A stretch of 59,195 nucleotides of DNA, taken from the IMG/VR virus record IMGVR_UViG_3300008448_000086, positions 1 to 59,195 of that record, one strand, 5' to 3'. Origin of the DNA: a virus (taxonomy: Duplodnaviria > Caudoviricetes). Below, piece after piece: positions 25,849 through 55,015 of this stretch (position 1 is the stretch's first letter; each line of letters begins with the position of its first letter). Both the position numbers and the translations under genes were made by a program. Under the pieces are notes generated by a model, which saw nothing but the letters and a program-made list of their open reading frames with translations, searched no databases and was not told the origin of the DNA.

Positions 25849-26814
25849 TTAAAGGACTTCTTTGAGTCGCTTGTAGAAGGCATTAGACTCATCTGTGTCG
25901 GAAAGGATGAAGTTTGCAATGACTTCAACTACCGATTTTCCAAATGGAATCTCTGTGATTACCTTGTCGGAATCCTTCCATGTGAGGTATCCTTTTTTAG
26001 AAGCTACATCAAGTACGCCTGCATCAAGGCCTTTCTTTACGAAATACTGAGCTTTAGCAGCCGGACTTCCTGATGTACTCATAAAGTATTCAGGCTTCTC
26101 AGCAGCCTTATTGGCGTAGTCTACGCGTACTTTAGCAAGAGACTTCTGCTCTCCGTACTGATTAATCATCTGGATTCCTAAAAACTCGGCATGGATAAGC
26201 ATATCTTCTACTTCAGCATTCATAGCTGTATTGATAGCTCTCAGCTTCGTTTCTTCTTTTAACAGCTCTTTGTTCTCAACATCTGCGCTGTTAACGAGCG
26301 TATACTTAGGCTTCTTGCCTTTCAGTCTCTCTTCTTTCTTATCGTAGTCATCGCTGTTCAAAAGGAACTTTAACAGCGTCTTGTTTGTTCTTGGAACACG
26401 CAGGTATCCGTTGTTAAATACGATGTCCAGCTTGTTTCTCTGCAAATATTGCGGAGTATAGCCTTCCTGCTCATCCATAAAGATGGAGCTTGCGCCACGT
26501 ACCAAACGAATAGTTCTTACGGATTGCGTTTCGCTGTCATATACAGGCATCTCATTTACTACAGACTCATAAGCTTTAGGCTTTATCCCTTCAGGAGTTA
26601 ACAGCTTAAAAACGTACATCTCTGGCTCTTTCTGCTGAGATTTGATTTTAAACTCTGTCTTAGCGATGATTTGCTTGAGTTTGTCTCCTTCTTCATCGAA
26701 CTCCTTAATGGGTCTTTTAGGTCTTTCGATGGCATCTTCTGTAACTACTGGCGCATCGGACAGCGCATTTAATACCGGTAGTTGCGGCTCTTGTTTGACT
26801 TGTTTTGTAGGCAT
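25849..26814 (-). CDS. Conserved protein downstream of the major capsid gene (virion-associated, function unknown)
   Basis: 321 aa; IRL...SIFMDEQ..IVFNNGYLRVP motif; TATATTTG box at 26837-26830. Confidence 0.6.
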   Translation of the reverse strand: MPTKQVKQEPQLPVLNALSDAPVVTEDAIERPKRPIKEFDEEGDKLKQIIAKTEFKIKSQQKEPEMYVFKLLTPEGIKPKAYESVVNEMPVYDSETQSVRTIRLVRGASSIFMDEQEGYTPQYLQRNKLDIVFNNGYLRVPRTNKTLLKFLLNSDDYDKKEERLKGKKPKYTLVNSADVENKELLKEETKLRAINTAMNAEVEDMLIHAEFLGIQMINQYGEQKSLAKVRVDYANKAAEKPEYFMSTSGSPAAKAQYFVKKGLDAGVLDVASKKGYLTWKDSDKVITEIPFGKSVVEVIANFILSDTDESNAFYKRLKEVL

Positions 26815-26838
26815 AAATATTTATTTGAACAAATATAA

Positions 26839-26903
26839 TAAAAAGCCCCCGAATATGAATAGTCAGGGGGTTATTTATTCACTTAACACAAAAAAACAAA
26901 CCT
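26839..26903 (-). ncRNA. Putative small antisense RNA B
   Basis: TACATTTG (26914-26907), U/G-rich body ggtttgttttttttgtgttaagtgaat, terminator ccccc..ggggg + U-tract. Confidence 0.6.
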
Positions 26904-26916
26904 TTGCAAATGTAAC

Positions 26917-26974
26917 AAAAAACCCCGAAAGTAAAAACAATCGGGGAGTAATAGAAAACAGAGTCAATCCAAGA
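26917..26974 (-). ncRNA. Putative small antisense RNA A
   Basis: TATTTTTG (26985-26978), body ttggattgactctgttttctatta, terminator ccccga..tcgggg + U6. Confidence 0.65.
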
Positions 26975-27033
26975 ACTCAAAAATACTTTATTAATCTATT
27001 CGTGCTGAATAGTTGTATCAACACTATTTAAAT

Positions 27034-27066
27034 AAAAAACCCCCCGAAAATCGAGGGGTCTTTTTT
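27034..27066 (-). terminator. Terminator after the major capsid gene (bidirectional type)
   Basis: gacccctcga/tcggggggt hairpin with A- and T-tracts on both sides. Confidence 0.75.
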
Positions 27067-27080
27067 ATGCTTAGTTAAGA

Positions 27081-28445
27081 TTAAGCACTCAGGCGCACGA
27101 AGCGGTTTGCAGCGAACACACGCAGACCAGCATAGCACAGGTGGTGTACGTTCAGTTCAGCAACATCGCTTGTAGGACTCTTAGCGAAAGCACCAGTTTC
27201 CCAAATGTGCAGGTCTTTGCCATTCACATTGTTGTAGGTAACTTCGATAGAGTTGTAACGCTCTCCAGTTTGAGGGTCACGTCCTTGAGCCATCGGAACT
27301 ACGATACCGTAGTTTTTGTACTGATGGTCAGTAGGAGTAGCACCGTATACAGCTTCAGGAGAGAACGGCATGTACTTCTTAATGTGGAAAGTATAGCCAT
27401 CCATAGTGATAGAACCGAAACCGTACATAGCAGCAGCTTCTTTGCTACCACCTACAGTACCCCAAAGGATAGCACCAGCATCGTACAGGTCAAACAGTTC
27501 GTCATCCAGCTCTTGACGTAAGAACACGTCAGCAAGCAGGTGATTCTCCATAGAACCTCCGTTGAAGTCTAAAGCACGAGTTACTTCGTGTAATTTAGCT
27601 CTGTCAAGAGAACCAGCAGTATAAGATACGCCAGTACCACGGCTTTCGATTTGGTCGATAAGACCGATAGTGTTCTTAGAAGTAGCAGAAGCGTTTGTGT
27701 TGGTAATTTGCTTACCGAAAACAAGAGTAAACTCTTTGTTGTTCATGTAACGCTTAACAGCATCTTCGAGACCTTTGTAAGAGTAATTATCACCAAACCA
27801 GATTTCTTCAATCATAGCACGGTCAGTTACTCTCCAGTCTTCGCGGATTTCAGAAACGTAGTTCAGAACTTCTTCAACACGAGGAATCAAAGCATCTCCC
27901 TTAGAAGAAGCTTCGCCTACCGCAGCTTGTCCGCGGAAGAGAATCCACTCGTTAGCATCCAGACGACCATCTACAGTAGCAGACTCAAATTGTTGAGTAG
28001 AGCTAAGAGGACGTACAGTTGCAGTGTGCGCACCAGCAGAAGTTTTGTCAACTGAAACTACTTTACCTTGGATACCAGTAGAAGCGATTTCAACTACTTC
28101 ACCTACACGGATAGGAGATTTAGTTCCGCTGTCATAGTGAGAACCAGAAGTCAAAGTGAAAGTAACAGCAGAACCATTGGTTGCACCAGTTACGTTAGCT
28201 TGTACTTGAACAGCTTGGTGTAATTTACCCAAATCTTCCCAGTGACGGATAGTTTGAGATTTCACCTGTCCTTTGAACCCGAGCATTTCCAACAGCATAG
28301 TGTAGTTCTGAGAACCATACTTGCTGATGAATTTAGGGTAGTACTGAGGTTTTAAGATACTAAGGTCACTAACGATACCTCTCGTTAGACCTGCGCCAGG
28401 ATTTACAAATGCTGACGGTTTCTCTGAGGCTGAATTGTATGCCAT
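27081..28445 (-). CDS. Major capsid protein
   Basis: 454 aa after scaffold; strongly biased codon usage; YGSQ, GFGSITMDGYTFH, HHLCYAGLRVFAANRF motifs of Bacteroidota podophage MCPs. Confidence 0.85.
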   Translation of the reverse strand: MAYNSASEKPSAFVNPGAGLTRGIVSDLSILKPQYYPKFISKYGSQNYTMLLEMLGFKGQVKSQTIRHWEDLGKLHQAVQVQANVTGATNGSAVTFTLTSGSHYDSGTKSPIRVGEVVEIASTGIQGKVVSVDKTSAGAHTATVRPLSSTQQFESATVDGRLDANEWILFRGQAAVGEASSKGDALIPRVEEVLNYVSEIREDWRVTDRAMIEEIWFGDNYSYKGLEDAVKRYMNNKEFTLVFGKQITNTNASATSKNTIGLIDQIESRGTGVSYTAGSLDRAKLHEVTRALDFNGGSMENHLLADVFLRQELDDELFDLYDAGAILWGTVGGSKEAAAMYGFGSITMDGYTFHIKKYMPFSPEAVYGATPTDHQYKNYGIVVPMAQGRDPQTGERYNSIEVTYNNVNGKDLHIWETGAFAKSPTSDVAELNVHHLCYAGLRVFAANRFVRLSA

Positions 28446-28470
28446 TTTTTGAGATTTTTAATTGTTAATA

Positions 28471-29598: not shown

Positions 29599-29618
29599 TG
29601 TTTTCTGTTTTTAAGTTA

Positions 29619-36648: not shown

Positions 36649-37256
36649 TATATTCCTGTTTTATGGTTTAATAAAAAGTTACCCCATTGTTCAGCCATTG
36701 CGTCGGCTATTCCTTGATAAGTCTTACTTCTTTCTTTTGATTTATTGCTTCCTAGCCAATGTATTCTTGTTCTTTCTTTTACAGGAAGCGTCATCATATA
36801 ATCGTAAACATTATTTGTTTCATTTAGCTTAGGCAATCCTTTAAGCCACAAGCAAGTTTTTTTCTGCTCAGGATGACCAAACTGAAAAGGATTTATAATT
36901 TGGTCAGGCTTTCTATATCTTGAACTCATTATACAAATAGGATTTTCTACAGCTATGTACTTAACTGGAGCATTTACAAATTTCATAAAAAAGTCAGCAG
37001 CTTCATCTTGCAAATAACGAGGCTTTACTCCTTCCTTAAACCATCTCGCACCACTGACAGCCAAGTGCGTACATGGAGGATGCGCAATAATTAAATCCCA
37101 GCCATCATTTAAAACTTCCAGCACATCTCCTTTTATATGCCACTCAGGATGACCTCCACTTTGGTCTTGTATATCACAACTATACGCCTCGAATCCTTTT
37201 GCTCTGAATGCCTTACATACAGTTTGACTTTCTTCGCAAGCTATTAATACTCTCAT
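36648..37256 (-). CDS. Short phage-type DNA cytosine methyltransferase-like protein
   Basis: VLIACEES (SAM-binding variant), HPPCT catalytic PC, ENP, RSKTYQGIADAMAEQW. Confidence 0.75.
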   Translation of the reverse strand: MRVLIACEESQTVCKAFRAKGFEAYSCDIQDQSGGHPEWHIKGDVLEVLNDGWDLIIAHPPCTHLAVSGARWFKEGVKPRYLQDEAADFFMKFVNAPVKYIAVENPICIMSSRYRKPDQIINPFQFGHPEQKKTCLWLKGLPKLNETNNVYDYMMTLPVKERTRIHWLGSNKSKERSKTYQGIADAMAEQWGNFLLNHKTGI

Positions 37257-37915
37257 ATTCCTGTTTTATGGTTTTCTGTTAATTGGTATCCGTGGTCGAT
37301 GGCGATGATGTCTTCTTCTTTTACTCGTATCAGACGGTGCTCTCTGCCTTTATCAGCATATACAACCTCATAGTCCGCCATTGTCTCAACGATTACAATA
37401 TCGTTCGGTTTAATGTACTGCTCCGACACTTTTTCGTCACTATTATTTGCAACTTTTGTGACAAGAACACGGTTATTTTCTTTCTCATCACTCAGGTCTG
37501 TTAATACTAGAGCGGATGTTTTAGCTTTCTTATAGATTCTTTCTGCAAGGATATATCCAGGCATAGGAGCAGGATTACCTTCTTCATCAAAATAAAAGAA
37601 AATATTCTTAGGTCTTACGGCATAGATATACAGCTTTTTATTTCCTCCGTATACGCTATCGTCTTTTGTAACTATGGCTTCTATCAGGTTATGGTCTGCA
37701 AAGGAGTTATGCCAGCATACAATCCTAGTACCCTCTTTTAGACCAAGATGATTGTCCGCATAGACGACTGCATTAACAGCATTCTTCTCTCTTTCGTTCC
37801 AACCAAAGTCTTTGTCGATGAATAATTTAATGTCTGTTCCTTCGATGGTGTGGGAGTATTTGTCTTCTTTGTCAACGACTACGACAATCTCTCCGCGGAG
37901 TGGTTTGTAGTTCAT
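37253..37915 (-). CDS. GroES-like co-chaperonin (two GroES-like halves)
   Basis: YKPLRGEIVV..., PMPGYILAER..., IKPNDIVIV..LIRVKEEDIIA; position upstream of packaging genes. Confidence 0.6.
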   Translation of the reverse strand: MNYKPLRGEIVVVVDKEDKYSHTIEGTDIKLFIDKDFGWNEREKNAVNAVVYADNHLGLKEGTRIVCWHNSFADHNLIEAIVTKDDSVYGGNKKLYIYAVRPKNIFFYFDEEGNPAPMPGYILAERIYKKAKTSALVLTDLSDEKENNRVLVTKVANNSDEKVSEQYIKPNDIVIVETMADYEVVYADKGREHRLIRVKEEDIIAIDHGYQLTENHKTGI

Positions 37916-37935
37916 GTCTGTTTTCTATTATGCAA

Positions 37936-39908: not shown

Positions 39909-40214
39909 GTGGGCATCCCCTCCGCTCCTTTCCTGATTATAACCTTCGCAAATTTTACCACTAACTTTTTTTTATTACATTAATAAAATTATTTTCTAGA
40001 ATATGTAATAAGATAGTTTTAAATGTCACGGGTTATTGTGTTAATTGATTTGAGCTGATAAATTTACTTTCCTTCATTTACTTTCCTTTATTACTTTATT
40101 AAATATTATTTAATGGTCTATAAACAGTAATTTGATATTTTCTAATTAACAGCCCTCCTTATTGAATGTTTTCTAAATTTTGACATAAGTGTTTTTTATA
40201 TGAATTATTCGCCT

Positions 40215-40222
40215 TAGCTTTG
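40215..40222 (+). promoter_or_regulatory. -7 box (TAGCTTTG) for early transcription
   Basis: TAnnTTTG ~70 nt before the first early ORF, downstream of an AT-rich tract. Confidence 0.55.
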
Positions 40223-40291
40223 TGAGCGAAGCGAACATGCTTCAAAAGTTAATGTTCTTTATTTATTTATTCATTTTTAAATCATGTTATC

Positions 40292-40783
40292 ATGAGCACA
40301 CAAACAAACAACGGGAGCGCGACCGTAACCAATACGCGCCAGGTAGTTAATTTGTCAACTACGAAAACAGGCAAAAATTTAACGGGAAAGCAGTTAAAAA
40401 ATAAGTTGGCAAATGACAAGGCAAAGGAATTGAGAAAAGCCACAAATGAAGCTCAAAAAGTAGCTACACAAACGGCAAAGGACGCGGAAAAAACTTTATC
40501 TTTTCAGTACAAAAGGCTTCAAAAGTACGCTCAAAACTACTGCATCTCTTTGTCTCTTGAAACGGGAAAGGATGTATCCTTCGAAAGTATCAAGGCGCTC
40601 AAATTTGCTGATTTTACGCCATATATTACCGAACGTGAAACGGCTGTATTTTTCGGTAATTGGTCGTTTCCCCGTTTCTTAACAATTATCAAAAGATACT
40701 ACAGAGCGGAGGCAAAGAATACTTTGTCGCCTGAGCAGATATCGGAACTTTCCGCCATAGTTGACGAAATTAACGCGGAATAA
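40292..40783 (+). CDS. First early protein, function unknown
   Basis: 163 aa ORF, divergent from late arm. Confidence 0.7.
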   Translation: MSTQTNNGSATVTNTRQVVNLSTTKTGKNLTGKQLKNKLANDKAKELRKATNEAQKVATQTAKDAEKTLSFQYKRLQKYAQNYCISLSLETGKDVSFESIKALKFADFTPYITERETAVFFGNWSFPRFLTIIKRYYRAEAKNTLSPEQISELSAIVDEINAE

Positions 40784-40789
40784 TACACC

Positions 40790-41630
40790 CTTACACCCCT
40801 ATACGTTAAAACGTACAGACAAAATTTTGCTTGTCTAGGGGTGCAAATATACCGGAAAAAAATACAGATATCCGGTAAGCATTGGTAAAAAATAGCCGAT
40901 ATATCAGGCTAACAATTCAGTGAATTGCTGATATATGCTTCATGCAGTGCATGAACGGGCAAAGATATGCAAATGTCATCTGTAGTTCTTTTGGGGCGAC
41001 ATTGCGACATATTTAGGATAAAGTAAGGATATTCAATATTTACGTATAATCGGGTAAAATTGCAGTGCAGTCCGGTTATATCGGTAAAGTTTACCTAGTA
41101 ATTTATTTTGTATCTGTTAAGCATAAATTTACTTTATTCGCGTTAAGTCGTTTCTAATTATTCAAGAAACGGACAAAGTAGCCCTGCATGATGCTGATGC
41201 AGTATGTTTTCCATGTGGCAATAAACGAACAACAAATGGTATTTAAGCGGAGCAAACCGCCTATACACCGGACCGCCGGAAGGTATGTCATGCAATAACT
41301 TATTTATGTTTATGCTCAAAGTAGACATGCCGGTAATTAAAACAAACGGATAACTTGTATTTTCGATTTATCATTATGCAAGTATGTGACTATCTGTTAA
41401 CAGCAATGTGCAAACGTCTGATTCTAAGGTGCAAACGTCTCAAACAAACCAACAATATTCACCTAACACAATTAGTAAGCCGGAACCGGCATGACTATAC
41501 TCGCCCTGATGTCGAAACAAAGGGTTAATTGTGCAAGGTGCAAACATATTGTTTTTAATAAACTCTCTTCAGGGAAAGTAAAGACAAGTGCAGGTGATTA
41601 GCGCGCCAGGTTCGATTCCTGGCTTTCCCC
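40790..41630 (+). ncRNA. Large (~850 nt) ornate structured RNA candidate
   Basis: ORF-free; nested multibranch stems with G-U pairs that only work on + strand; ends in tRNA-like domain. Confidence 0.65.
41572..41630 (+). tRNA. D-armless tRNA-like element (not a canonical tRNA)
   Basis: Acceptor gggaaag/ctttccc; T-arm ccagg-ttcgatt-cctgg; 9-nt linker in place of D-arm; 4-bp stem with 9-nt loop. Confidence 0.6.
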
Positions 41631-41662
41631 TATATCTGACAAAACAGATATTTTTTAAGCTT

Positions 41663-41869
41663 ATGAAACAGTTACAAAAAGCATTTGCCAACGTAAATCA
41701 AACGGCAAAATCTCAAGGCGTTTGCCCTATTCTTGTTGTGTTCAATGGATTATGCTTTGTTGATACTGAGGTGAAAAGATTCGAGAGAGAGAAGGCTGTC
41801 AAAGCGCAGGCAAAAAGAGGCGGGAAGTACAAAGCGCCACCAAAATTCACAGGCATTTTTAATTTTTAA
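41663..41869 (+). CDS. Early hypothetical protein
   Basis: ATG 41663 (MKQLQKAF). Confidence 0.6.
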   Translation: MKQLQKAFANVNQTAKSQGVCPILVVFNGLCFVDTEVKRFEREKAVKAQAKRGGKYKAPPKFTGIFNF

Positions 41870-41899
41870 ACTAAATCAAATAACACAAAACAAAACAGC

Positions 41900-42100
41900 A
41901 TGAAAACCAATTACACAAAGGTCTGCTCAGCTAAAGATGGCAAGGTCATCCGCTCAACAGACAAACCTATCAGCACTCACGAAAGAATCATCATTGCCTT
42001 AACAGAACTTGGCGAAGATGTAAATGAGTTTAACTTGAAGGCAAGCTTCAGGGCTCACCAAAGAAAATTAGCAAATCCAAACCTTAACCCCTTCAACTAA
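41900..42100 (+). CDS. Early hypothetical protein
   Basis: A-rich leader, ATG. Confidence 0.6.
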   Translation: MKTNYTKVCSAKDGKVIRSTDKPISTHERIIIALTELGEDVNEFNLKASFRAHQRKLANPNLNPFN

Positions 42101-42106
42101 TCAGCC

Positions 42107-42331
42107 ATGACAGTAAAAAACATGAACACGCTCAAAGCAATGGAGCGCAAAGGATTAATCGAACTGCACAGACAAACCGGAAGCAAAATTGCAGGACTTT
42201 ACAGCAACCAGAAGTTCACATGCTACTATGTGCATGACGGACTGACTCAGTTCCAGTACAAAAAGCAGTGGTACGGCATTAAGTACTTTTCCGGATGCTT
42301 CTTCCCTTATGTAGTAAAACTTTTAAACTAA
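42107..42331 (+). CDS. Early hypothetical protein
   Basis: ctaatcagccATG junction; KYFSGCFFPYV motif. Confidence 0.65.
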   Translation: MTVKNMNTLKAMERKGLIELHRQTGSKIAGLYSNQKFTCYYVHDGLTQFQYKKQWYGIKYFSGCFFPYVVKLLN

Positions 42332-42337
42332 TCAGCC

Positions 42338-42550
42338 ATGCAAAACGAAAAACTCGGCATTAATCTGCGGACATTGCTAGATACTAGCATAAGTATAGCA
42401 CTTCGCAGCATGGATTTATCTAACTACGAACAGCGAAATAAATTCATAGACATGATAGAAAAGCGCATCATTGAAGATGCAGACTGGATAAGCATGTCTA
42501 ATGGTACGACGTACGAAAAAACTTTCACCCCTAAATCTAATAAACAATGA
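42338..42550 (+). CDS. Early hypothetical protein
   Basis: Same ctaatcagccATG junction. Confidence 0.6.
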   Translation: MQNEKLGINLRTLLDTSISIALRSMDLSNYEQRNKFIDMIEKRIIEDADWISMSNGTTYEKTFTPKSNKQ

Positions 42551-42642
42551 AACATTCAGCAGAAGAAAAACAGAAACGGACAGAGCTGTTAATCGTAGTA
42601 ATTATATCCATGTTCGCTATTGCAATATTGCAAAATATATAA
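42547..42642 (+). CDS. 31-aa single-TM peptide
   Basis: MKHSAEEKQKRTELLIVVIISMFAIAILQNI; ATGA overlap with upstream stop. Confidence 0.5.
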   Translation: MKHSAEEKQKRTELLIVVIISMFAIAILQNI

Positions 42643-42656
42643 ACCATAACACAAAC

Positions 42657-42830
42657 ATGAAAAAACTAATCATCATCGTAATTATCGGACTATTTATGTC
42701 AAGCTGTTCACCTTATGTAAATGTAGGCGGAGAAGGTGGCAGATGTAAGGTAATGGCTCCTCGCAAATTTGAAAAGACAAGGTCGTTTCCAAGTCGCTCT
42801 CACCCCATGTACAGAGCAGGGGTACACTAA
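42657..42830 (+). CDS. Small lipoprotein
   Basis: MKKLIIIVIIGLFMSS-C lipobox. Confidence 0.65.
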   Translation: MKKLIIIVIIGLFMSSCSPYVNVGGEGGRCKVMAPRKFEKTRSFPSRSHPMYRAGVH

Positions 42831-42851
42831 GATGTTTGTTTTGTGTGAACT

Positions 42852-42888
42852 AGCCGGTAACAGGTAAAGCTGACCGGCTTTTTATTTT
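42852..42888 (+). terminator. Intrinsic terminator
   Basis: agccggt..accggct + U-tract. Confidence 0.75.
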
Positions 42889-42948
42889 ACACAAAGTAAA
42901 CAAATCACTTTACTAAATTTAAAAATCGTAAATCTAAAACTTAACACA

Positions 42949-43173
42949 ATGCAAATTAATTTAAACAAACACGTATGGGAAGGATGGACAGTCGGAGACT
43001 TTATCGACGACCTTGAGCCTTTATTCGACATAGTTAGGTCAAACGCTTCAGAGTTCGGATGCTCAGCGTTCGAAACTAAGGAAGACGTAAAGAAATGGTG
43101 CATGGATAATCAACCAGGATACAAAAAGTATATACCAGAAGTAGTCAACTACTTCGCTAGTAAAATAAAATAA
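42949..43173 (+). CDS. Early hypothetical protein
   Basis: WEGWTVGDFI..WCMDNQPGYKK. Confidence 0.7.
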   Translation: MQINLNKHVWEGWTVGDFIDDLEPLFDIVRSNASEFGCSAFETKEDVKKWCMDNQPGYKKYIPEVVNYFASKIK

Positions 43174-43198
43174 TCATTCACAATTAAAACCAAACACA

Positions 43199-43762
43199 AT
43201 GACACAGACAAAGACAGACTACCAAATCGAAATCATCCATGATGAATTTCCGCAAAATCCACGTATTGAATGGGACAACCTAGGCACAATGGTATGCTTC
43301 CATAGAAGGTACACGCTAGGAGATATTGGTCACGGATACCGCGCATCAGACTTCAACTCATGGGACGAACTTAAACAGCTAATTATAAAGCAAGTAAAGC
43401 CAGCTGTTATCCTCCCTGTCTACATGTACGACCACAGCGGAATGACCATCAGCACATCACCATTCAGCTGCCCCTGGGATAGCGGACAAATCGGCTTCAT
43501 CTATATCGGCAGACTTAAAGTAATGAAAGAGTATAACGCAAAACGCATAAGCCGTAAACTAAAAGATAGATTAACCGAATATCTGAAAGCAGAGGTAGAA
43601 ATATATGACAACTACCTGACAGGCTCTTGCTATGGATACGAAATAACTAAGGACGGAGAAACTATTGACAGCTGCTGGGGATTCTACGGAAGGGAAAGCG
43701 CAAGGCAGGCAGCAGAAGAACAATTAATGTACTACAAATCAAAAGAAGTTGTATCTTTGTAA
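43199..43762 (+). CDS. Conserved phage early protein
   Basis: NPR.WDNLGTM..PVYMYDHSG..WDSGQIGFI..DSCWGFYG. Confidence 0.75.
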   Translation: MTQTKTDYQIEIIHDEFPQNPRIEWDNLGTMVCFHRRYTLGDIGHGYRASDFNSWDELKQLIIKQVKPAVILPVYMYDHSGMTISTSPFSCPWDSGQIGFIYIGRLKVMKEYNAKRISRKLKDRLTEYLKAEVEIYDNYLTGSCYGYEITKDGETIDSCWGFYGRESARQAAEEQLMYYKSKEVVSL

Positions 43763-43788
43763 TTATTCACCACTAAAAACAAATCACC

Positions 43789-44001
43789 ATGAAGAAAGAA
43801 GTAGGAACATGGGAATTAAAAGAGCTGGGATTCGATAATATACACGAATACTTTAGCTACATCATCGACAGCATCACAAACGGGCAGCATAAGCAAGCCA
43901 GGATTCTATGGTTTGACCTAAGCAAGGAGCAAAGGAATCAGTTTCTGGACTGGAAAGAAACTTATGCCCCTGCCGCATCCATCAGGACAATTATTACTTA
44001 A
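43789..44001 (+). CDS. Early hypothetical protein
   Basis: A-rich leader, ATG. Confidence 0.6.
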   Translation: MKKEVGTWELKELGFDNIHEYFSYIIDSITNGQHKQARILWFDLSKEQRNQFLDWKETYAPAASIRTIIT

Positions 44002-44019
44002 CAAACAAAACCAATAACA

Positions 44020-44271
44020 ATGACGCAAGAAAAGCAATCAGTTCCAGGACTACACACTGTTGTGGTCTATGACAATGAAGGAGAAACATTTGACAGATAC
44101 ACTGTCTATACTCCCGATGGCAGCGTATTCGGGATGAGCGAGAATGCTGAAGGTTTCAATCAATACTTAGGCGAATGGTATGAAGTAGAAGAAGGCGACC
44201 ACCTAGGCAAGAAACTAGACAGCATACCTGAAAGCATAAGAGAAGCTGTAATAAATAGAATGACTAATTAA
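44020..44271 (+). CDS. Early hypothetical protein
   Basis: YDNEGETFDRYTV..GMS..HLGK motif. Confidence 0.7.
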   Translation: MTQEKQSVPGLHTVVVYDNEGETFDRYTVYTPDGSVFGMSENAEGFNQYLGEWYEVEEGDHLGKKLDSIPESIREAVINRMTN

Positions 44272-44315
44272 TAATCACTTAAAACAAATCACTTAACAAT
44301 TAAAAACAAATCACA

Positions 44316-44732
44316 ATGGGAACACGTTCATTAACAGCCTTCATTAACAAGGCAAGGGAATCACAAGAAATCTGCGTAATGTACCGCCAATACGATGGCT
44401 ATCCTGAAGGGCATGGCTTACAGCTAGCCGAGTTCTTATCAAGCGGAAAGATGGTAAATGGTATTTCGGTTGGTGAAACAGAACTCGTATTTAATGGTAT
44501 GGGATGCCTGGCTGCCCAGGTAATATCCTACTTCAAAGAAGGGCCTGGAGGATTCTATATAGAGCCTGCCGGAACAAGGGATGTTGGCGAAGAGTATATC
44601 TATAAAGTATACACTAATGACAATGGGCAGCTAATGATGAGATGCTTTGACGTATGGAAAGGCAGGACTATATTCGTCGGCACTCCTGAAAAGTTCATAG
44701 CTAAGTATGGCAAAGTAAAAGAGACAGCATAA
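44316..44732 (+). CDS. Conserved phage early protein
   Basis: MGTRSLT..YRQYDGYPEGHG..NGMGCLAAQ..EEYIY. Confidence 0.75.
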   Translation: MGTRSLTAFINKARESQEICVMYRQYDGYPEGHGLQLAEFLSSGKMVNGISVGETELVFNGMGCLAAQVISYFKEGPGGFYIEPAGTRDVGEEYIYKVYTNDNGQLMMRCFDVWKGRTIFVGTPEKFIAKYGKVKETA

Positions 44733-44759
44733 TTATTCATTCACTTAAACACACAAACC

Positions 44760-45449
44760 ATGAAACTAAATCTGTTATCAATGGGTAACGCCAAGACGCC
44801 CAAAGGAGAGAAGCTTGGCATCCTTACTGGCATCCTTTACCTTGCGCCTGCTAAGATATCAGGCTACGAGGTATGCCCTCGCAGGTCAGCTGGATGCACT
44901 AGCGCCTGCCTTTACTCAGCAGGACGTGGTAAGTTCAGCAATGTTCAGCAGGCTCGCATCAGACGTACTAAAATGTTCTTCGAGCAGCGTGAACTATTCC
45001 TTAACATGCTTCGCCTTGACATTAGGCTGATTGAGCTTATGGCAAATGACAAGGGCATGACGCCTGCCGTACGTCTCAATGGTACGTCAGACATAGACTG
45101 GACAAGGTTCGGCATCATGGAAGAGTTTCCTAATGTAAGATTCTACGACTACACTAAGGTACTCAACCGACTGTCCAAGCCACTGCCATCCAACTATTCC
45201 GTAGTCTTCAGTAAGAATGAAGCTAATGACGTAGAGGCAGACGCAGCACTTAAGATGGGATTCAATGTATCTGTTGTCTTCGACCTAAGTAAGAATGACG
45301 ATATGCCTACCACGTACAATGGCATACCTGTCCATGATGGTGACGAGACAGACGCGCGCTTCCTCGACCCACAAGGCGGCTACATCATCGGGCTTCGCGC
45401 TAAGGGTGATGCTAAGAAAGATTCATCAGGATTCGTAATTCATTTATAA
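44760..45449 (+). CDS. Gp88-like Cys-motif protein
   Basis: ILYLAPA..CP..SAGC...CL..GRG, VRLNGTSDI, FYDYTK, DGDETDARFLD. Confidence 0.7.
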   Translation: MKLNLLSMGNAKTPKGEKLGILTGILYLAPAKISGYEVCPRRSAGCTSACLYSAGRGKFSNVQQARIRRTKMFFEQRELFLNMLRLDIRLIELMANDKGMTPAVRLNGTSDIDWTRFGIMEEFPNVRFYDYTKVLNRLSKPLPSNYSVVFSKNEANDVEADAALKMGFNVSVVFDLSKNDDMPTTYNGIPVHDGDETDARFLDPQGGYIIGLRAKGDAKKDSSGFVIHL

Positions 45450-45467
45450 TAATTAAAACAAAACAAC

Positions 45468-45698
45468 ATGAGTAACTCATCAGCACGTAACAGAGACATT
45501 ATAAGAGATACGCTTGAATATCTCTCAGCAGAACAACGCCCCATAAAACTTACCCTGCGCCCTCCGGCATGGACTAATATAATAGAGCCAGAAGATAACA
45601 TCATGGAAATCAATGACGGGGAGGATGGGGTGTTCGAAGGGATACCTGAAAGCTTCTATGACGAGATGGTCAAATTATATCATAACCAAAATCAATAA
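45468..45698 (+). CDS. Early hypothetical protein
   Basis: A-rich leader, ATG. Confidence 0.55.
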   Translation: MSNSSARNRDIIRDTLEYLSAEQRPIKLTLRPPAWTNIIEPEDNIMEINDGEDGVFEGIPESFYDEMVKLYHNQNQ

Positions 45699-45701
45699 CA
45701 C

Positions 45702-45866
45702 ATGCCACTAATATTCTTCATACTAGCATTTTCACTGTTCACCTACGCTGACAAAGAGCCTAGCTGTATCGCAGGAGGTATCATATTCTCTATACTTGGT
45801 GCTGTGTTCTTTGACACAGGACTTCCTGAGAAAAAAGAATCATTGTTCAAAAAGAAAAAACGTTAA
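45702..45866 (+). CDS. Small two-TM membrane protein
   Basis: MPLIFFILAFSLFTYADKEPSCIAGGIIFSILGAVFF..KKKKR. Confidence 0.5.
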   Translation: MPLIFFILAFSLFTYADKEPSCIAGGIIFSILGAVFFDTGLPEKKESLFKKKKR

Positions 45867-45867
45867 C

Positions 45868-46074
45868 ATGACAAAAGATATCAAAATAGAAAATGCTTTC
45901 AATGTACTTAAGGATGCAGGATATTATGTAGATGTTCTTTGGAGTATATATGATGTTAAAAGCATACATCCATGTACTGACGAAGAAGCCTATCGAATAT
46001 TAGATGAAGTAATGGCTAGCCCAAGTGTAATGGAATCTATTGCGGATGAAATACTAAAGAAGTCGCAAAAGTAG
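45868..46074 (+). CDS. Hypothetical protein
   Basis: ATG 45868; LWSIYDV..CTDEEAYRIL. Confidence 0.6.
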   Translation: MTKDIKIENAFNVLKDAGYYVDVLWSIYDVKSIHPCTDEEAYRILDEVMASPSVMESIADEILKKSQK

Positions 46075-46083
46075 GTTTCACTA

Positions 46084-46347
46084 TCACGCGCGCTTGGTCG
46101 GCTTACCGCCTGCGCCATTACGCGCCCGATTCCTGCTCTGATGCTCTTTGACAAGCTTACCGCTTCGCTTATGGCTCATATCTATATCGTCACCATTGCC
46201 GTATGTTCCGGCTTTGCGATTGGCTTTATTGAGCTTAGAACGGTACTCTCTGCGCTCGGCTGTGCTATGGTACAGCGCATCATAGGCAGCCTTGCGCTTC
46301 TTGGCATCGGGATTCTTATCGTAGTATTTCTTAGATTTAGAAGGCAT
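46084..46347 (-). CDS. Small basic His-Me finger (HNH-like) protein
   Basis: GNGDDIDMSH..NRARNG motif; TAAATTTG box at 46358-46351. Confidence 0.6.
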   Translation of the reverse strand: MPSKSKKYYDKNPDAKKRKAAYDALYHSTAERREYRSKLNKANRKAGTYGNGDDIDMSHKRSGKLVKEHQSRNRARNGAGGKPTKRA

Positions 46348-46555
46348 AAACAAATTTAAAACAAATCTATATGATTAAAAAGATTTTAAAGAAACTGGAC
46401 AAAAAAAAGACGAACAGAACGAAGAAAGACTCCTGGGAAGATATCATAGGCAGGCACTATGCCCTATCTGATGGGGAGTTCATCGACGAACTGATAGCCA
46501 ACTACGAGCCACCAAAAAGAAAATCAAACATTCATAACAACTAAAACAAATCAAA

Positions 46556-46858
46556 ATGAAAAATTTAGAAACAGATTATAATCGTGTTAAAACTTACGAA
46601 GTATTTATGGACAGAGGTGGCGATGTTGCTTCTAAAAAAAATATATATGTTAGAGCATACTATAACGAAAGCATAAGCAACGAAGATAATTGTTATCAAG
46701 TAAATGTTATGTACTATAGAAATAGAGATACAGATGATGGCGATTATTTTGACGAAGAATTTATTACCACTAAATCGCCTAGTGAAGCCGAAATATTAGC
46801 CGATAAAATTAATAAATATGGCTATGAAGATTTTATGCCTAAAAATTTGGTGGTTTAA
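46556..46858 (+). CDS. Hypothetical protein (AT-rich)
   Basis: 100 aa ORF, A-rich leader. Confidence 0.55.
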   Translation: MKNLETDYNRVKTYEVFMDRGGDVASKKNIYVRAYYNESISNEDNCYQVNVMYYRNRDTDDGDYFDEEFITTKSPSEAEILADKINKYGYEDFMPKNLVV

Positions 46859-47062
46859 ATATTATGTACTATATTGCATTAAAACAAACCATATGGCAAA
46901 ATTATTAATCATCCTCGGCATCTTCGGCATAAGCTGTTACTTATGGGCACTTGTGCTGGAACTCAAAGAATATAATTCAAATAGTTGATTATTCCATAAG
47001 CAAACACAGGTGATGTTTCTACATCTGCCTGGTATTTTTTTAACCATTAAAACTTAACACAA

Positions 47063-47353
47063 ATGAAAGGAAGACTCATCTCGGTAAACTTTATCCCTCA
47101 CGCCTACTCAGAAACGCTATCCGCTGCATTCGAACTTACAATGCAGGACAGAGCCGAACTAAAGCCTGACTGGCTAGGATGCGGATGTCTGTTCGATATG
47201 GAAGGTGGCTACGCTAAGCTAGTACCTGACAGTATAATACCGGCAGGTAAAAAAGCAGAGCTATGGCACATCATGAATCTGCTCAGCTACGATGACATGG
47301 ACAGCGACCAAAAGGTAGACGCTGTTAAAGAATATATTCACAATCACTTCTAA
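47063..47353 (+). CDS. Hypothetical protein
   Basis: A-rich leader, ATG. Confidence 0.6.
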   Translation: MKGRLISVNFIPHAYSETLSAAFELTMQDRAELKPDWLGCGCLFDMEGGYAKLVPDSIIPAGKKAELWHIMNLLSYDDMDSDQKVDAVKEYIHNHF

Positions 47354-47365
47354 AAACAAATCACA

Positions 47366-47596
47366 ATGAAACTACTTCTCTACAAAGATGAGCTTAACTC
47401 ATTCATCGAATCTTACGAATCAAGTGTCCTCAAGGAGTATATCAAGTTCTCCATACACCCTTACGAAACTAATGGCAAGCAAGGAGTAACAGATACCTAT
47501 TGGGTAAAGTTTGATGAAGGTATGGATGAAAATGCAAATCTGCTGAACTTTATATTCAGAGCAGGAACAATTCACGGTAAAAATAAAAACAAATAA
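47366..47596 (+). CDS. Hypothetical protein
   Basis: aaaacaaatcacaATG leader. Confidence 0.6.
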   Translation: MKLLLYKDELNSFIESYESSVLKEYIKFSIHPYETNGKQGVTDTYWVKFDEGMDENANLLNFIFRAGTIHGKNKNK

Positions 47597-47598
47597 CA

Positions 47599-47850
47599 AT
47601 GGAAAAGTTAATCGAACACATGATTCAAATCGTTGAATCCAACGCAAATAACAATCAGGCTACCATCCCCGATGTGGAGGCGTGGGCCATCGCATGGAGA
47701 GAAGAGGCATCCAAGCTTCAGTCTCACTCATGGATGGAGGTATGGAGCGAATGGATAAAGAAGGACAGCAAATTCGGAGTCATAAACTTCCTGGACTACC
47801 TAACAGACAATTACTATCCACCAGTAAAAAAGGAAGCGAATGAGGCATAG
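47599..47850 (+). CDS. Hypothetical protein
   Basis: Operonic ORF. Confidence 0.55.
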   Translation: MEKLIEHMIQIVESNANNNQATIPDVEAWAIAWREEASKLQSHSWMEVWSEWIKKDSKFGVINFLDYLTDNYYPPVKKEANEA

Positions 47851-48112
47851 GATAATAGAAGATGACAAGTCTATAGAGTACAATGGTAAAAAGTACCTGC
47901 TAAGGAGGATGGAGTTCGAGCTGTTTAAATACCTTTGCCTTAACGATGGCAGGATAGTAAGCAGAGAGGAGATAATGAGCGAGGTATGGAAGTACGATAA
48001 CCATGTAGGCAGTAACAGGACAATAGACGTACACGTAAGGAGGATTAGGAAGAAGCTACCTGACTGCCCTATAGTCACCAGAAAATGCTACGGATACACT
48101 ATTAAATACTAG
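47840..48112 (+). CDS. Stand-alone OmpR/PhoB-type winged-helix DNA-binding domain
   Basis: L...EFELF.YL..N.GRIVSREEI...VW......SNRTIDVHVRRIRKKL....I.T....GY. Confidence 0.85.
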   Translation: MRHRIIEDDKSIEYNGKKYLLRRMEFELFKYLCLNDGRIVSREEIMSEVWKYDNHVGSNRTIDVHVRRIRKKLPDCPIVTRKCYGYTIKY

Positions 48113-48115
48113 ACA

Positions 48116-48361
48116 ATGATAAAGAAAGACTACTTAACGTACAAGCAGACAGACCCAATGGCTATTGTGTACGAGTATTACAAGGAGAAGTTTGATAAAA
48201 GTAAGCACAAACACTTCATGAGCAGAAAAGAATTTGATACCTTTGCTCCGATGTATACTGACGTAAACAGCGCCTACATAAAGGCCTGCCAGCACTACGA
48301 TGAAGCTCTTAAAGTAGTCGAGCTTAAAGACAAACAAGGTAATCCTATAATGATATTCTAA
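48116..48361 (+). CDS. Hypothetical protein
   Basis: Operonic ORF. Confidence 0.55.
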   Translation: MIKKDYLTYKQTDPMAIVYEYYKEKFDKSKHKHFMSRKEFDTFAPMYTDVNSAYIKACQHYDEALKVVELKDKQGNPIMIF

Positions 48362-48466
48362 ATCATCAGCCTCCTGAAATTATTAATATTCTAAAAAATG
48401 TTAGAAGTATTAATGAATTTAAAGGGACAGGGGGCTGTATCTTTTTAACATTTAAAAACAAATCAC

Positions 48467-49150
48467 ATGAGCAAAATGAAAGATGTACTTATCGACCAAA
48501 TGAACAACCAGTCAGCGACCAAATCAAATGCAGAGTACCTGCGCTATGTAATCGATAATCTATCCAAGCCAATGCCTTACCAGTGGCGTGTGCAATCATT
48601 CAACAAAAACAATACCAAGTGTACCTGCGTAGCCTACATCGACGCAAGGCAGGCAATGGATACGCTTGACAAGTATTGTGTTTACGGATGGACAAAGAAG
48701 TACCTTGACATCAAGGGTAGCATCTACTGCTCCATCGGTATAGTGATGCCGGATGGAAGTATCATCGAGCGCCAGGACGTAGGCTCAGAAGGGAACTTTG
48801 AGGCGGAGAAATCAGCAGCATCCGATGCCTTCAAGAGGGCAGCTGTCAACTTTGGGGTAGGCAGATTCCTGTATGACCTTGATATTGTAGACCTTGATGC
48901 AGGTAGCAAGGACTTCAACGGCAAGCAGTATCCTTTCCCAGCAGATAAGAACGGCAATAAGATATGGGATATTACAGAGCATATCAATAAGATGCAGGGC
49001 GTAGTTGATGGAGTTCATCCGCTTCAGGAAGCCTTACAGAAGCTGTCAGGTATGAGTGACAAGGCCAAGGCTATTGAGTGGGCAAAGACACTTCCAGATA
49101 GCGTAAAGACTCACCAATCCTTCCGCCAGGCATTCAGTAAAAGATTCTAA
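48467..49150 (+). CDS. Rad52/Sak-like single-strand annealing protein
   Basis: WRVQ..VAYIDAR..D.LD..EKSAASDAFKRAAVNFGVGRFLY. Confidence 0.85.
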   Translation: MSKMKDVLIDQMNNQSATKSNAEYLRYVIDNLSKPMPYQWRVQSFNKNNTKCTCVAYIDARQAMDTLDKYCVYGWTKKYLDIKGSIYCSIGIVMPDGSIIERQDVGSEGNFEAEKSAASDAFKRAAVNFGVGRFLYDLDIVDLDAGSKDFNGKQYPFPADKNGNKIWDITEHINKMQGVVDGVHPLQEALQKLSGMSDKAKAIEWAKTLPDSVKTHQSFRQAFSKRF

Positions 49151-49273
49151 TAAGAATGAAAATTAGATAAAAATAGTTCTTTTTTTTATGAAAAAAACTG
49201 GACATTTTGCTCAGTGTATTGAGCAATTTTACTCAATGCTTCGGATAAAAACCGAACTAGATATTGTTATGTT

Positions 49274-50301
49274 ACATAACGTATGGTGCTATACGCTCGT
49301 TTTAATGGCGTATAGCACGTGTTACAGGTAGTAGGGATTTATACCACAAAACTTAATTAGAAGTATAAACAAAAAAGAATTTAAAAATGAGCGTAGGCAA
49401 AAAAGAAAAAATTAACGTATTATCATTATTTGATGGTATGAGTTGTGGACAGATTGCATTGAATAAAGTAGGAATTGAGTATGAAAATTATTTTGCTTCT
49501 GAAATAGAACAAGCACCTATTAAAGTTACACAACACAATTATCCTAATACTATACAATTAGGAAGTGTATTAAACGTAAAAGGTTGTGATTTGCCAAATA
49601 TAGATTTACTAATTGGTGGTAGTCCTTGTCAATCTTTTTCAAATGCTGGAAAAGGAGAAGGTTTTGATGGGAAAAGTGGTTTGTTTTGGGAATATGTACG
49701 AATATTAAAAGAAGTAAATCCAACTTATTTTTTACTTGAAAATGTGAAAATGAAAAAAGAATGGAAAGATATTATTTCTAAAGAATTAGGAGTTGAACCG
49801 ATAGAAATAAATAGTTCTTTAGTATCTGCTCAAAATAGACCGAGATTATATTGGACAAATATACCAAATGTTGATGTTCCAAAAGATAAAGGACTTTTAT
49901 TTAAAGATGTATTAAATACTGATTATGAATTTAAACCTTTAACTAAATGGTTTTTTTCTAAATGGGGAGATAAACAAAAAATAGATACATTAAAGACAAT
50001 TGATGCTGAAAAATCATTTTGTTTAACTACAAATAAAAGCCACTCAAAAAACTATTACTTAACACCTGATAAAACTATGGCTCGTATGCTTGAAAGAGAT
50101 GAAGTAGAAAGATTGCAAACTATACCAAATGGATATACAAATATTGTTTCAAAAACAGACGCACATAAAATGATAGGAAACGGATGGACAGTAGATGTGA
50201 TTGCTCATATTTTTTCTTTTTTAAGAGGGGAGGAAAAATTTTTAAATTCTTTTTCAAACGAAAATGTTTAATCGAAGCGATACACCCCTATTACCTGTAA
50301 C
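49274..50301 (+). mobile_element. attC-like gene cassette carrying the C5 MTase
   Basis: acataac + 11-bp hairpin + gttacagg upstream; ccctattacctgtaac downstream complementary to the cassette start; AT-rich cargo. Confidence 0.5.
49387..50271 (+). CDS. DNA (cytosine-5) methyltransferase
   Basis: LSLFDG (I), GGSPCQ (IV), ENV (VI), QNRPR (VIII), ERLQ (IX), GNGW (X). Confidence 0.92.
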   Translation: MSVGKKEKINVLSLFDGMSCGQIALNKVGIEYENYFASEIEQAPIKVTQHNYPNTIQLGSVLNVKGCDLPNIDLLIGGSPCQSFSNAGKGEGFDGKSGLFWEYVRILKEVNPTYFLLENVKMKKEWKDIISKELGVEPIEINSSLVSAQNRPRLYWTNIPNVDVPKDKGLLFKDVLNTDYEFKPLTKWFFSKWGDKQKIDTLKTIDAEKSFCLTTNKSHSKNYYLTPDKTMARMLERDEVERLQTIPNGYTNIVSKTDAHKMIGNGWTVDVIAHIFSFLRGEEKFLNSFSNENV

Positions 50302-50398
50302 TAATGGCTTCACGCAATGCGTACTAATACCCAAAATGGCAGGATAGGCGAAACAGAACCAGTAAAATATTTTTATTAATCACTTAAACCAATAAACA

Positions 50399-51187
50399 AT
50401 GCAAGTAACACAAGAACTACTACAGCACAGACCGCTGTCATTCTCATCTCTTAAGGAGTTTATGCGCTCCCCTCAGCACTACGTTAAGTATCTGGCAACA
50501 GACAAAAAGCCTACAGATGCTATGCTCTTCGGGTCCATCTGCCACAAGCTAATCCTTGAACCGCAGGACTTCGATAAAGAGTTTATCATCGAGCCTGAGT
50601 TCAACAAGCGTACCAATCAGGGCAAGGAAGACTATGCAGCATTCATCGCAAAGATATCAGAGCAAGGCCTTACCGCTATCCCACCTGCCACCTACGAGAA
50701 AGCTGTTGAGCTGGTAGCTGTACTCAAGCAAAGCCATGTATACAACTACGTAAAACAGCTTACATCCAAGGAAGAAAGATTCGATAAGGTGCATGACACA
50801 GGGCTTCCTATCTGCGGATATATTGATGGCGTAGCTAAGGACTTCAACCTGGAGATTAAGATAGTATCATCGGCAGAAGCTGACGATATCATCCGAGACT
50901 TCTATAAGATGAAGTACCATCTGCAAGCAGGCATCTACAATTGGGTGAACGGAAAGCCAATATATTATTTAGTGGTAGAGAACAGCTTCCCATATCTTAG
51001 CCGAGTGCTGATAGCCTCAGACCATTACATAGCAGAAGGCAGAAGGATGTTTGATAAGGCAATGACGGACTTTAAGTTCTGCATTGACATTGACAACTTC
51101 AGCGCAGGATATGAGTTCTATACAGGAGTAGAGCCTCTCACCTTATCACTCCCTCCTTGGGCAAAGAAAGGAGGTGGCGATGATTAA
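50399..51187 (+). CDS. ExoVIII/RecE-like PD-(D/E)xK exonuclease (DUF3799-like)
   Basis: LSFSSLK..FGSICH..LEP, GYIDG..EIK, YHLQAGIY. Confidence 0.8.
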   Translation: MQVTQELLQHRPLSFSSLKEFMRSPQHYVKYLATDKKPTDAMLFGSICHKLILEPQDFDKEFIIEPEFNKRTNQGKEDYAAFIAKISEQGLTAIPPATYEKAVELVAVLKQSHVYNYVKQLTSKEERFDKVHDTGLPICGYIDGVAKDFNLEIKIVSSAEADDIIRDFYKMKYHLQAGIYNWVNGKPIYYLVVENSFPYLSRVLIASDHYIAEGRRMFDKAMTDFKFCIDIDNFSAGYEFYTGVEPLTLSLPPWAKKGGGDD

Positions 51188-51301
51188 GACGCTAGTATGC
51201 CTCACGTATAAGATAGGATTCACGCTTACGTTTATCTATCTGCTCTGTATCGTTATAGTAAACATGGCCTTATTAATTAAAAAACTATCAAACTGGTTAT
51301 T

Positions 51302-51691
51302 ATGGAAAAAGAACAGGATTTAGTAAAGGTTCCGGCAGAATGGCTACCTATAAATGCCATTGACTTATTCTCTTCTGGCAACTTCAAAAGTTTACAATCA
51401 GCAAACTTTTTTACCGATGACCTCAAGATGAATGGCGAGACATTCTACATCAACAAAGACGGATACCTCATACACGAAGACAGAAGGATGTCCGTAGTTG
51501 TAGGCGAGCCTGAAATCAATGATGGTAAGGTATGCCTTGTGGTAGACACCTCCCACCGGCCAGTCATGGAACATAAGCTCAGGAAACTTTATTCCGTTGT
51601 TTGGGATAAAATGTGTATCTTGGTGCTTCAATTCAAGGAAAGCAGAGTAGTAGAAGCACAATCAATCATAAGACATGTACACAATCGGTAA
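51302..51691 (+). CDS. Hypothetical protein
   Basis: 129 aa ORF. Confidence 0.55.
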   Translation: MEKEQDLVKVPAEWLPINAIDLFSSGNFKSLQSANFFTDDLKMNGETFYINKDGYLIHEDRRMSVVVGEPEINDGKVCLVVDTSHRPVMEHKLRKLYSVVWDKMCILVLQFKESRVVEAQSIIRHVHNR

Positions 51692-52112: not shown

Positions 52113-52117
52113 ACATT

Positions 52118-52384
52118 ATGTCAAAGTACGACAACTCAAACACAGCGGTATTATTTAAGAATGACAAGAAAGGAAACGAGAAAGCCCCAGACTACAAAGG
52201 CAAAGGTGAAGTAAATGGCAAGGAAGTAGAGCTTGCTGCCTGGGCAAGAAAGTCTGAAAAGGGAGATACGTTCCTTTCAATAAAGTTCTCTGAGCCATTT
52301 AAAAAAGATGGTAATAAAACTTTTACCAAGTCGGCCGAGAAGCCAGCATACAAGCAGCCGGAAGAAGACGGCCTTCCGTTTTAA
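52118..52384 (+). CDS. Small SSB-like protein
   Basis: LFKNDKK..KAPDYKG..AAW..FLSI; acidic tail ending LPF. Confidence 0.7.
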   Translation: MSKYDNSNTAVLFKNDKKGNEKAPDYKGKGEVNGKEVELAAWARKSEKGDTFLSIKFSEPFKKDGNKTFTKSAEKPAYKQPEEDGLPF

Positions 52385-54290: not shown

Positions 54291-54308
54291 CTTAAACAAG
54301 AATTGGTT

Positions 54309-54993: not shown

Positions 54994-55015
54994 TAAAACT
55001 TTAAACCAAACCACC

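Follow-up and report, generated by a model that had tools for sequence, protein, structure and literature searches.

The window, by which we mean the whole stretch of DNA analysed here, is a linear virus record of 59,195 bp from an uncultured freshwater phage, with an estimated completeness of 86%. The genes on the - strand span positions 1 to about 39,000 and include tail and head genes, the portal, the large terminase, a methyltransferase, a GroES-like gene and an SU10-type major capsid gene, and those on the + strand span about 40,000 to 57,000, with many small genes, a C5 methylase, a PDDEXK exonuclease and the DnaA_C-like, SSB-like and primase-helicase genes. The major capsid gene (27081-28445, - strand) matches SU10_MCP and PHROG 13704. 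The GroES-like gene (37253-37915, - strand; 220 aa) has weak matches to GroES PHROGs, with E values of 1.4e-6 and 5e-4, and the DnaA_C-like gene (51675-52112, + strand; 145 aa) matches Pfam Bac_DnaA_C with 34.1 bits at a cut-off of 31.5. Neither a DNA match to the window nor a match to its capsid protein was found among public phage records, and the phage therefore has no cultured-phage relative in that collection. In the course of annotation no lysogeny gene was noticed among the ~20 annotated proteins, and no tRNA or tmRNA was found.

Only 5 of the 75 called genes in the window carry a Shine-Dalgarno (SD)-like tetramer at -20 to -4, and the leaders consist of 48% A and 9% G. Scarce SD-like tetramers together with A-rich leaders fit SD-independent initiation in the host, and we infer a Bacteroidota-type host for this phage. 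In a study of Bacteroidetes ribosomes, translation in hosts of this sort reportedly begins with no need for Shine-Dalgarno pairing (PMC7797042).

Between the capsid gene and the next gene, which encodes a protein of 321 aa (25849-26814, - strand), lies a spacer of 266 bp (26815-27080) that holds a putative small RNA (sRNA), here called unit A. Read along the - strand, this spacer contains the intrinsic terminator of the capsid gene (27031-27058), about 60 variable nt, a -7-like box TATTTTTG (26985-26978), a 27-nt body (26974-26948), a hairpin (26946-26923) followed by six U (26922-26917), then a second box TACATTTG with a second short body and hairpin (to 26840), and finally the promoter-like TATATTTG of the 321-aa gene (26837-26830). 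The box, the body and the terminator-like hairpin that the sequence-only reading had described all lie where it placed them. The box lies 5 nt upstream of the body and is a possible promoter of the small RNA, as it matches TAnnTTTG, a motif that we take to be a Bacteroidota promoter element; this motif is not enriched in the window (75 occurrences against 63.6 expected). The body reads TC followed by TTGGATT-GACT-CTGTTTTCTATTAC, and its 5' half (26958-26972) holds a 4-nt patch that varies between relatives while its 3' half (26948-26961) is invariant.

The terminator-like hairpin pairs CCCCG with CGGGG around a 14-nt loop. Unit A is predicted to fold with a minimum free energy (MFE) of -13.7 kcal/mol (z = -3.0), the body staying largely unpaired. 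The sole call of a terminator scan of the spacer was the terminator adjoining the capsid gene, which separates that gene from unit A; the loop of the unit A hairpin exceeds the limits of the scan, and the 12-14 nt that this loop spans across relatives are unusually many for an intrinsic terminator. No Rfam 15 family matched at gathering thresholds anywhere in the window, and the 15 sub-threshold matches within 26780-27100 scored 16-24 bits against thresholds of 39-114. The + strand under 26917-26985 carries no gene, only short unsupported open reading frames, and the sites complementary to the body all lie elsewhere, which argues against a cis-antisense RNA of the OOP or sar type. Four freshwater metatranscriptome runs, from three studies, yield contigs over the capsid gene and its upstream neighbour, and none in 26814-27014. 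We treat this gap as uninformative, since contigs from standard libraries are unlikely to hold a 57-nt RNA and cannot show its ends.

Capsid-protein searches yielded 8 loci from viral records and 23 from metagenomes, with identities of 87-100%. Twenty of these relatives extend beyond the capsid stop codon and make, together with the window, 21 sequences, of which 16 are distinct over the spacer and 14 over unit A. Wherever the region is present in a close relative, the unit has been kept. In all 14 distinct sequences the body has the form TTGGATT-patch-CTGTTTTCTATTAC, these 25 nt being invariant outside the 4-nt patch, and the patch itself is GACT (type 1, which includes the window), TAAT (type 2) or TAC- (type 3). 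The hairpin is likewise found in 14 of 14, with a G:C stem of 4-6 bp and a U-run, and shows one G:C to C:G double change; the linker between body and hairpin ranges from 1 to 7 nt, and the ~60 nt upstream of the unit cannot be aligned between types. It is this body, invariant except for its patch while the flanks diverge, that makes unit A credible, the 14-nt match to the GroES-like leader discussed below being weak when taken alone. The hairpin loop, TTGTTTTTACTT, is nearly as conserved as the body.

The candidate promoter box is kept in part. The sequence TA-n-TTTT stands 5 nt ahead of the body in 16 of 16 distinct relatives, amid otherwise unalignable sequence, so that both the core of the box and its spacing are kept, but the full TAnnTTTG is found in only 6 of the 16, those in which the last base is G; in the remaining 10 this base is A and the box reads TAnTTTTA. 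The weak box of these 10 relatives may leave room for an origin of the RNA in the 3'UTR of the capsid mRNA, by read-through or processing, with a terminator intervening between the stop codon and the body.

In a sister clade whose capsid protein is ~48-50% identical, the body core was found after the capsid gene in none of 40 loci at up to 3 mismatches, and 14 of the 16 sister sequences inspected have a single terminator followed by the promoter of the next gene. The motif is also absent from the GroES-like leaders read in 3 of the 5 sister genomes. One sister contig (L145, 2551-2750) carries between the capsid terminator and the next gene an extra unit of ~90 nt, with a hairpin and a U-run and of unrelated sequence, and small insertions may be frequent at this position. 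That the body is a dispersed repeat was considered and rejected, the core 14-mer occurring 12 times at up to 3 mismatches against 10.1 expected. A scan of viral contigs for the exact body returned six stretches, four from known relatives and two (L018 and L021) that are chance matches in an unrelated coding region.

Five related records (G001-G005) were compared whole, each genome's own seed being set against its own start regions. Two sites, D and T, which the sequence-only reading had missed, have the best support as partners of the body, ahead of the GroES-like leader. Site D (26788-26808, - strand) covers about codons 3-9 of the 321-aa gene and is complementary to the 5' half of the body, the half that holds the patch. 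It pairs best with the seed type of its own locus in 14 of 14 loci, at -15.4 to -20.5 kcal/mol. The contiguous match is 13 nt in all four type-2 loci and 11-12 nt in all four type-3 loci, and in the six type-1 loci it is 6-8 nt, to which a bulge is added. At type-1 loci the own type leads the next-best one by 8-11 kcal/mol, at type-2 and type-3 loci by only 0.5-4.9 kcal/mol. Seed and site D also mirror each other in a one-base indel.

Site T (51645-51673, + strand) spans -30 to -2 before the ATG of the DnaA_C-like gene and is complementary to the whole body. It could be compared in five genomes, G003 being excluded as its contig ends and the gene of G004 being identified by hand, and the duplex energies are -25.1, -22.1, -23.0, -18.3 and -19.2 kcal/mol. 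In four of the five, site T pairs best with the seed type of its own genome, by 6.5-10.1 kcal/mol; the exception is G005 (type 2), which pairs better with the type 3 seed (-21.3 against -18.3 kcal/mol). Averaged over 4 genomes, site T gives -22.1 kcal/mol, a value that no gene group attained when the seed columns were shuffled 250 times plainly and 250 times with dinucleotides preserved; the best shuffled values were -19.2 and -21.95 kcal/mol. Several unrelated sites genome-wide also reach -22 to -24 kcal/mol. Of six single differences between seed and site T that lie in or beside the helices, counted by eye, five are A-to-G or C-to-U, the polarity that keeps G.U pairs. The covariation of patch and sites spans three lineages only.

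Site D is 160 nt from the body on the same strand, where linkage is possible, and the main rival to action in trans is a long-range fold in cis. According to this explanation, the body would pair with codons 3-10 of the 321-aa gene in read-through transcripts that come from the capsid gene or from the box, a domain of ~190 nt would be closed and the start masked, transcripts from the gene's own promoter would stay open, and the other matches would be incidental. The pairing of body and site D does appear in both the MFE and the centroid folds of stretches of 201 nt (window) and 205 nt (L002), which have z scores of -3.96 and -4.35 and are matched by none of 200 shuffles, and RNAalifold returns the same 13-pair helix from 14 sequences; the preference of site D for its own seed type at every locus agrees with it as well. 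However, two units of hairpin plus U-run and the conserved TAyATTTG box lie between the arms, so that most transcripts should end before site D, and RNAalifold counts only one pair between seed and site D with changes on both sides, a pair that is broken in 4 sequences. A fold in cis also leaves unexplained that site T, 25 kb off and on the other strand, tracks the same patch, and it has no pairing at site D for the 3' half of the body, which is nevertheless invariant and matches two late leaders. The intervening terminator-like units, the tracking by site T and the 3' half that the cis helix does not use lead us to favour action in trans; the fold in cis is a serious rival, but we regard it as unlikely.

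The position of site T, directly upstream of a gene whose product scores above the cut-off for the DnaA C-terminal helix-turn-helix (HTH), is a typical place for autoregulation. It agrees with an explanation at the DNA level, in which the body, sites T and D and the leaders would be binding sites of a phage protein, for example the DnaA_C-like HTH protein, and would change in concert with the drifting specificity of that protein. Copies are indeed found in both DNA orientations. On the other hand, all the strong copies are mRNA-sense and the body alone is antisense and non-coding, an argument that is weakened by the A-rich coding strands; sites D and T and the leaders of the GroES-like and 375-aa genes share GAAAACAG-like cores, each of them mRNA-sense. 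A tally of sites of at least 10 nt (37 sense and 8 antisense in 6 genomes) was discarded as evidence for the same reason, namely that coding strands are A-rich. The helix differences are G.U-compatible in five of the six cases, the matching segments vary between lineages, which fits pairing better than a fixed protein site, and sites T, D and the one at 59170 lie in coding sequence. Judged by eye against the DnaA-box consensus, the sites showed no DnaA-box-like core. Shared binding sites are in our judgement a very improbable explanation for what an RNA acting in trans would account for by pairing.

The leader of the GroES-like gene (37917-37930, - strand) is complementary to the invariant 3' half of the body, and a perfect 14-nt antisense match to it had been the starting point of the sequence-only reading. 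The match is as described: - strand 26962-26949 complements mRNA-sense 37930-37917, with C and the ATG next. Taken alone, this 14-mer is no better than chance and thus weak evidence. The window holds 39 inverted 14-mer pairs, and shuffling of its 26 intergenic regions gave 0.40 intergenic/start-region 14-mers per window, with at least one in 25% of 300 shuffles. When the unit A seed was set against the 75 start regions, a match of 14 nt was reached in none of 500 shuffles, the longest being 13 nt, in 4 shuffles. The duplex energy at the GroES site is unremarkable, -16.8 kcal/mol against a mean best of -17.0 kcal/mol for the shuffles, and when the window's 75 start regions are ordered by energy only, the GroES-like leader comes about 4th, which is chance level. 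Some gene group attained -15.5 kcal/mol in 47 of 250 plain shuffles and in 27 of the 250 that preserved dinucleotides, which places the GroES-like and 375-aa leaders at chance.

Contiguous matching gives a different value to the same leader. A match is found in 6 of 6 genomes, with lengths of 14, 13, 12, 8, 8 and 8 nt, and none of 400 plain column shuffles and none of 250 that preserved dinucleotides attained its mean, which is 11.75 nt over 4 genomes and 10.5 nt over 6. Seven of 8 aligned sequences retain the leader AATAGAAA(A)CAG, even with the GroES-like protein down to 60% identity. The leaders of G003 and G005 read AAATAGAAACAG, with one A lost and hence a one-base bulge, and that of G004 behaves likewise. 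Co-variation of seed and GroES-like leader across related phages, which the earlier reading had proposed as its own check, was not seen: the matching half of the seed never varies, three of the six genomes have the bulge, and there is no compensatory change. In the contig of L007/L012, a GroES-like frame (L012, 1440-1520) lacks the ATG, the TATATTTG box and the AATAGAAAACAG leader, and this gene may start elsewhere, be fused or be broken. A scan for the pattern of promoter plus leader was set aside: only 4 of its 59 stretches lie upstream of a GroES-like gene and the rest are unrelated; one group of 15 unrelated contigs shares an identical promoter-plus-AAATAGAAAACAAAC. Even if the pairing is not real, the case illustrates that a single perfect 14-mer is not evidence by itself.

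One may ask whether there is any regulatory pairing at all. The spacer could be a conserved insulator, a stack of terminators that follows a capsid gene with very high expression, and the complementarities could be by-products of its U-rich sequence meeting A-rich leaders. The frequency of intergenic/start-region 14-mers in shuffled windows speaks for such an insulator, A-rich leader families are common in this phage, a parallel-complement control gave a mean of 9.0 contiguous nt, and unrelated places attain energies like those of site T. But a stack of terminators needs no invariant unpaired stretch of 25 nt amid diverging neighbours, and neither the covariation that ties the patch to both site D and site T nor the permutation tests that the observed values exceeded are expected from it. 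We consider an insulator of this kind improbable, and continue with the reading in which unit A pairs with phage mRNAs.

Further sites are complementary to the body. The leader of a 375-aa gene upstream of the capsid gene (29599-29612, - strand) is partly complementary to the invariant half of the body, by 11 nt (AATAGAAAACA) in G002-G005 and by 8 nt in the window and G001. Between the SSB-like gene and the primase-helicase gene, a site at 52390-52406 (+ strand) offers 12 nt plus 3 further pairs, at -23.0 kcal/mol. The earlier statement that the seed also matches 52390-52401 is correct for the 12-nt match, but this match is confined to one lineage: G001 retains 11 nt of it, and the orthologous spacers of G002 and G004 lack it. 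A site in an open reading frame cut by the window end (59170-59195, - strand) is lineage-specific as well, with -27.3 kcal/mol in the window and -31.6 kcal/mol in G001, and with orthologues in the type-2 genomes G002, G003 and G005 at -6.2 to -9.2 kcal/mol. Both this site and the one at 52390 are found in type 1 only. Apart from these, the window contains one other non-trivial same-strand antisense 14-mer that joins an intergenic region to a start region, TTAACAATTAAAAA, which links 44293-44306 with the capsid-gene leader at 28455-28468.

Unit A is adjoined by a second unit, B, at 26840-26914 on the - strand, with the box TACATTTG (26914-26907), the body TTTTTTGTGTTAAGTGAAT at 26895-26877 and, at 26870-26840, a hairpin that carries a U-run. 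Its box conforms to TAyATTTG in 15 of 16 distinct relatives. The body of unit B is antisense to a family of leaders of early + strand genes, ATTCACT-n-TAAACAAAA, and its seed has 10-12-nt matches to five start regions of the window. The unit B variants of G002, G004 and G005 match 3-6 start regions of their own genomes by 9-13 nt, and the window's unit B seed finds no match in the start regions of these three genomes. In G001, where unit B has a point change, there is no start-region match of at least 9 nt.

The early leaders themselves fall into families. Just before the ATG, near-identical leaders with TAAAAACAAATCAC are found in four genes (43774-43787, 44301-44314, 47351-47364 and 48453-48466) and a second family with TAAAACTTAACACA in two (42935-42948 and 47048-47061), and corresponding families, each in a version of its own, are found in the relatives. 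Such leaders may enhance translation in an SD-less host, or be sites of a shared regulator. Several early leaders contain TTATTCAC- or ATATTCACA-like words, which we take to resemble DnaA boxes. Within the loop of the unit A hairpin, 9 nt complement the core TAAAAACAA that the early-leader family shares, and this could be a second contact surface or a composition effect only. The antisense network that had been proposed for this phage survives in reduced form: the complementarity of unit A to start regions beats permutations and unit B is antisense to an early-leader family, but co-variation with the GroES-like leader and conservation of the 52390 match did not hold.

Base-pairing RNAs encoded by phages are known from a handful of phages of Proteobacteria. 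The c4 RNAs of P1 and P7, the CI immunity RNA of P4, the OOP RNA of lambda and the sar RNA of P22 repress genes of their own phage by antisense pairing. OOP and sar are encoded opposite their targets and overlap them, whereas the candidate targets of unit A are 160 nt to 25 kb away, and it is from the immunity operons of temperate phages that c4 and CI are processed, whereas unit A is placed after the capsid gene. A GibS-type mechanism, in which translation-start regions are targeted by a short RNA that combines an unpaired seed with an intrinsic terminator, would share with unit A the setting of a phylum without SD-led initiation. RNAs of this type are chromosomal and non-homologous to unit A, which is phage-borne. 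GibS itself is described as an sRNA of Bacteroides thetaiotaomicron (Ryan et al. 2020, PMC7366714).

That phages encode sRNAs of their own is established for lambda and the Stx phages, according to a preprint that also discusses a possible interaction of lambda late RNA with early RNA (bioRxiv 10.1101/2024.10.31.621285). PreS/LPR1, LPR2 and 6S of lambda and StxS of Stx phages are, like the putative RNA of unit A, small and phage-encoded, some of them from the late region, and they base-pair near translation starts, as proposed for unit A. They depend on Hfq and their characterised targets are mostly host genes (PreS activates dnaN), whereas the candidate targets of unit A are all phage genes and its host is probably of the SD-less Bacteroidota type. 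Small RNAs have also been mapped in the jumbo Pseudomonas phages 201phi2-1 and phiKZ (PMC11512511); they are short promoter-to-terminator units in structural regions, conserved between related phages, which the putative unit A resembles, but come without proposed targets, whereas unit A has candidate targets that co-vary with it. The jumbo-phage RNAs are supported by transcripts, and the lambda, Stx and GibS-type RNAs were mapped experimentally, whereas unit A is known from sequence alone. A full-text literature search found no description of a base-pairing sRNA for phages of Bacteroidota-type hosts. Unit A most likely belongs to a known kind, the phage-encoded base-pairing RNA, in a setting, that of a Bacteroidota-type host, which this search did not find described.

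Conservation, fold, complementarity and covariation were computed here, and with these in mind we give somewhat better than even credence to unit A being a trans-acting base-pairing sRNA with several phage targets. According to this interpretation, the - strand from 26974 to 26917 would encode a discrete RNA of ~57 nt, with an unpaired 5' body and a terminator hairpin, for which the start point and the promoter box are presumptive. Its core CUGUUUUC and the flanks of this core would pair with A-rich GAAAACAG-type sequences at the ribosome-landing regions of phage mRNAs. The 5' half with the variable patch would pair with codons 4-9 of the 321-aa late gene and, extended into the remaining body, with -30 to -2 of the early DnaA_C-like gene, and the invariant 3' half would pair with the short leaders of the GroES-like and 375-aa genes. 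In a host with SD-independent initiation such pairing would block binding of the 30S subunit and lower translation of the target genes, repression being the presumed direction of the effect.

One may speculate further, and tentatively, on a switch late in infection that works against leaders, in which the tandem units A and B damp early translation and tune late translation purely by RNA; we think this possible rather than probable. Unit A would act on GAAAACAG-type start regions, those of a replication-module gene and of three late genes, and unit B on the ATTCACT-n-TAAACAAAA leaders of early genes, with a timing that we likewise presume. Host ribosomes would recognise A-rich leaders and not Shine-Dalgarno sites, and seeds and leaders would co-evolve lineage by lineage.

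The three seed variants, each matching the sites of its own genome, amount to a natural experiment and provide a ready specificity matrix. If the pairing is real, an uncultured freshwater phage would time its genes at the RNA level, and its seeds and leaders would offer orthogonal pairs for SD-less bacteria.
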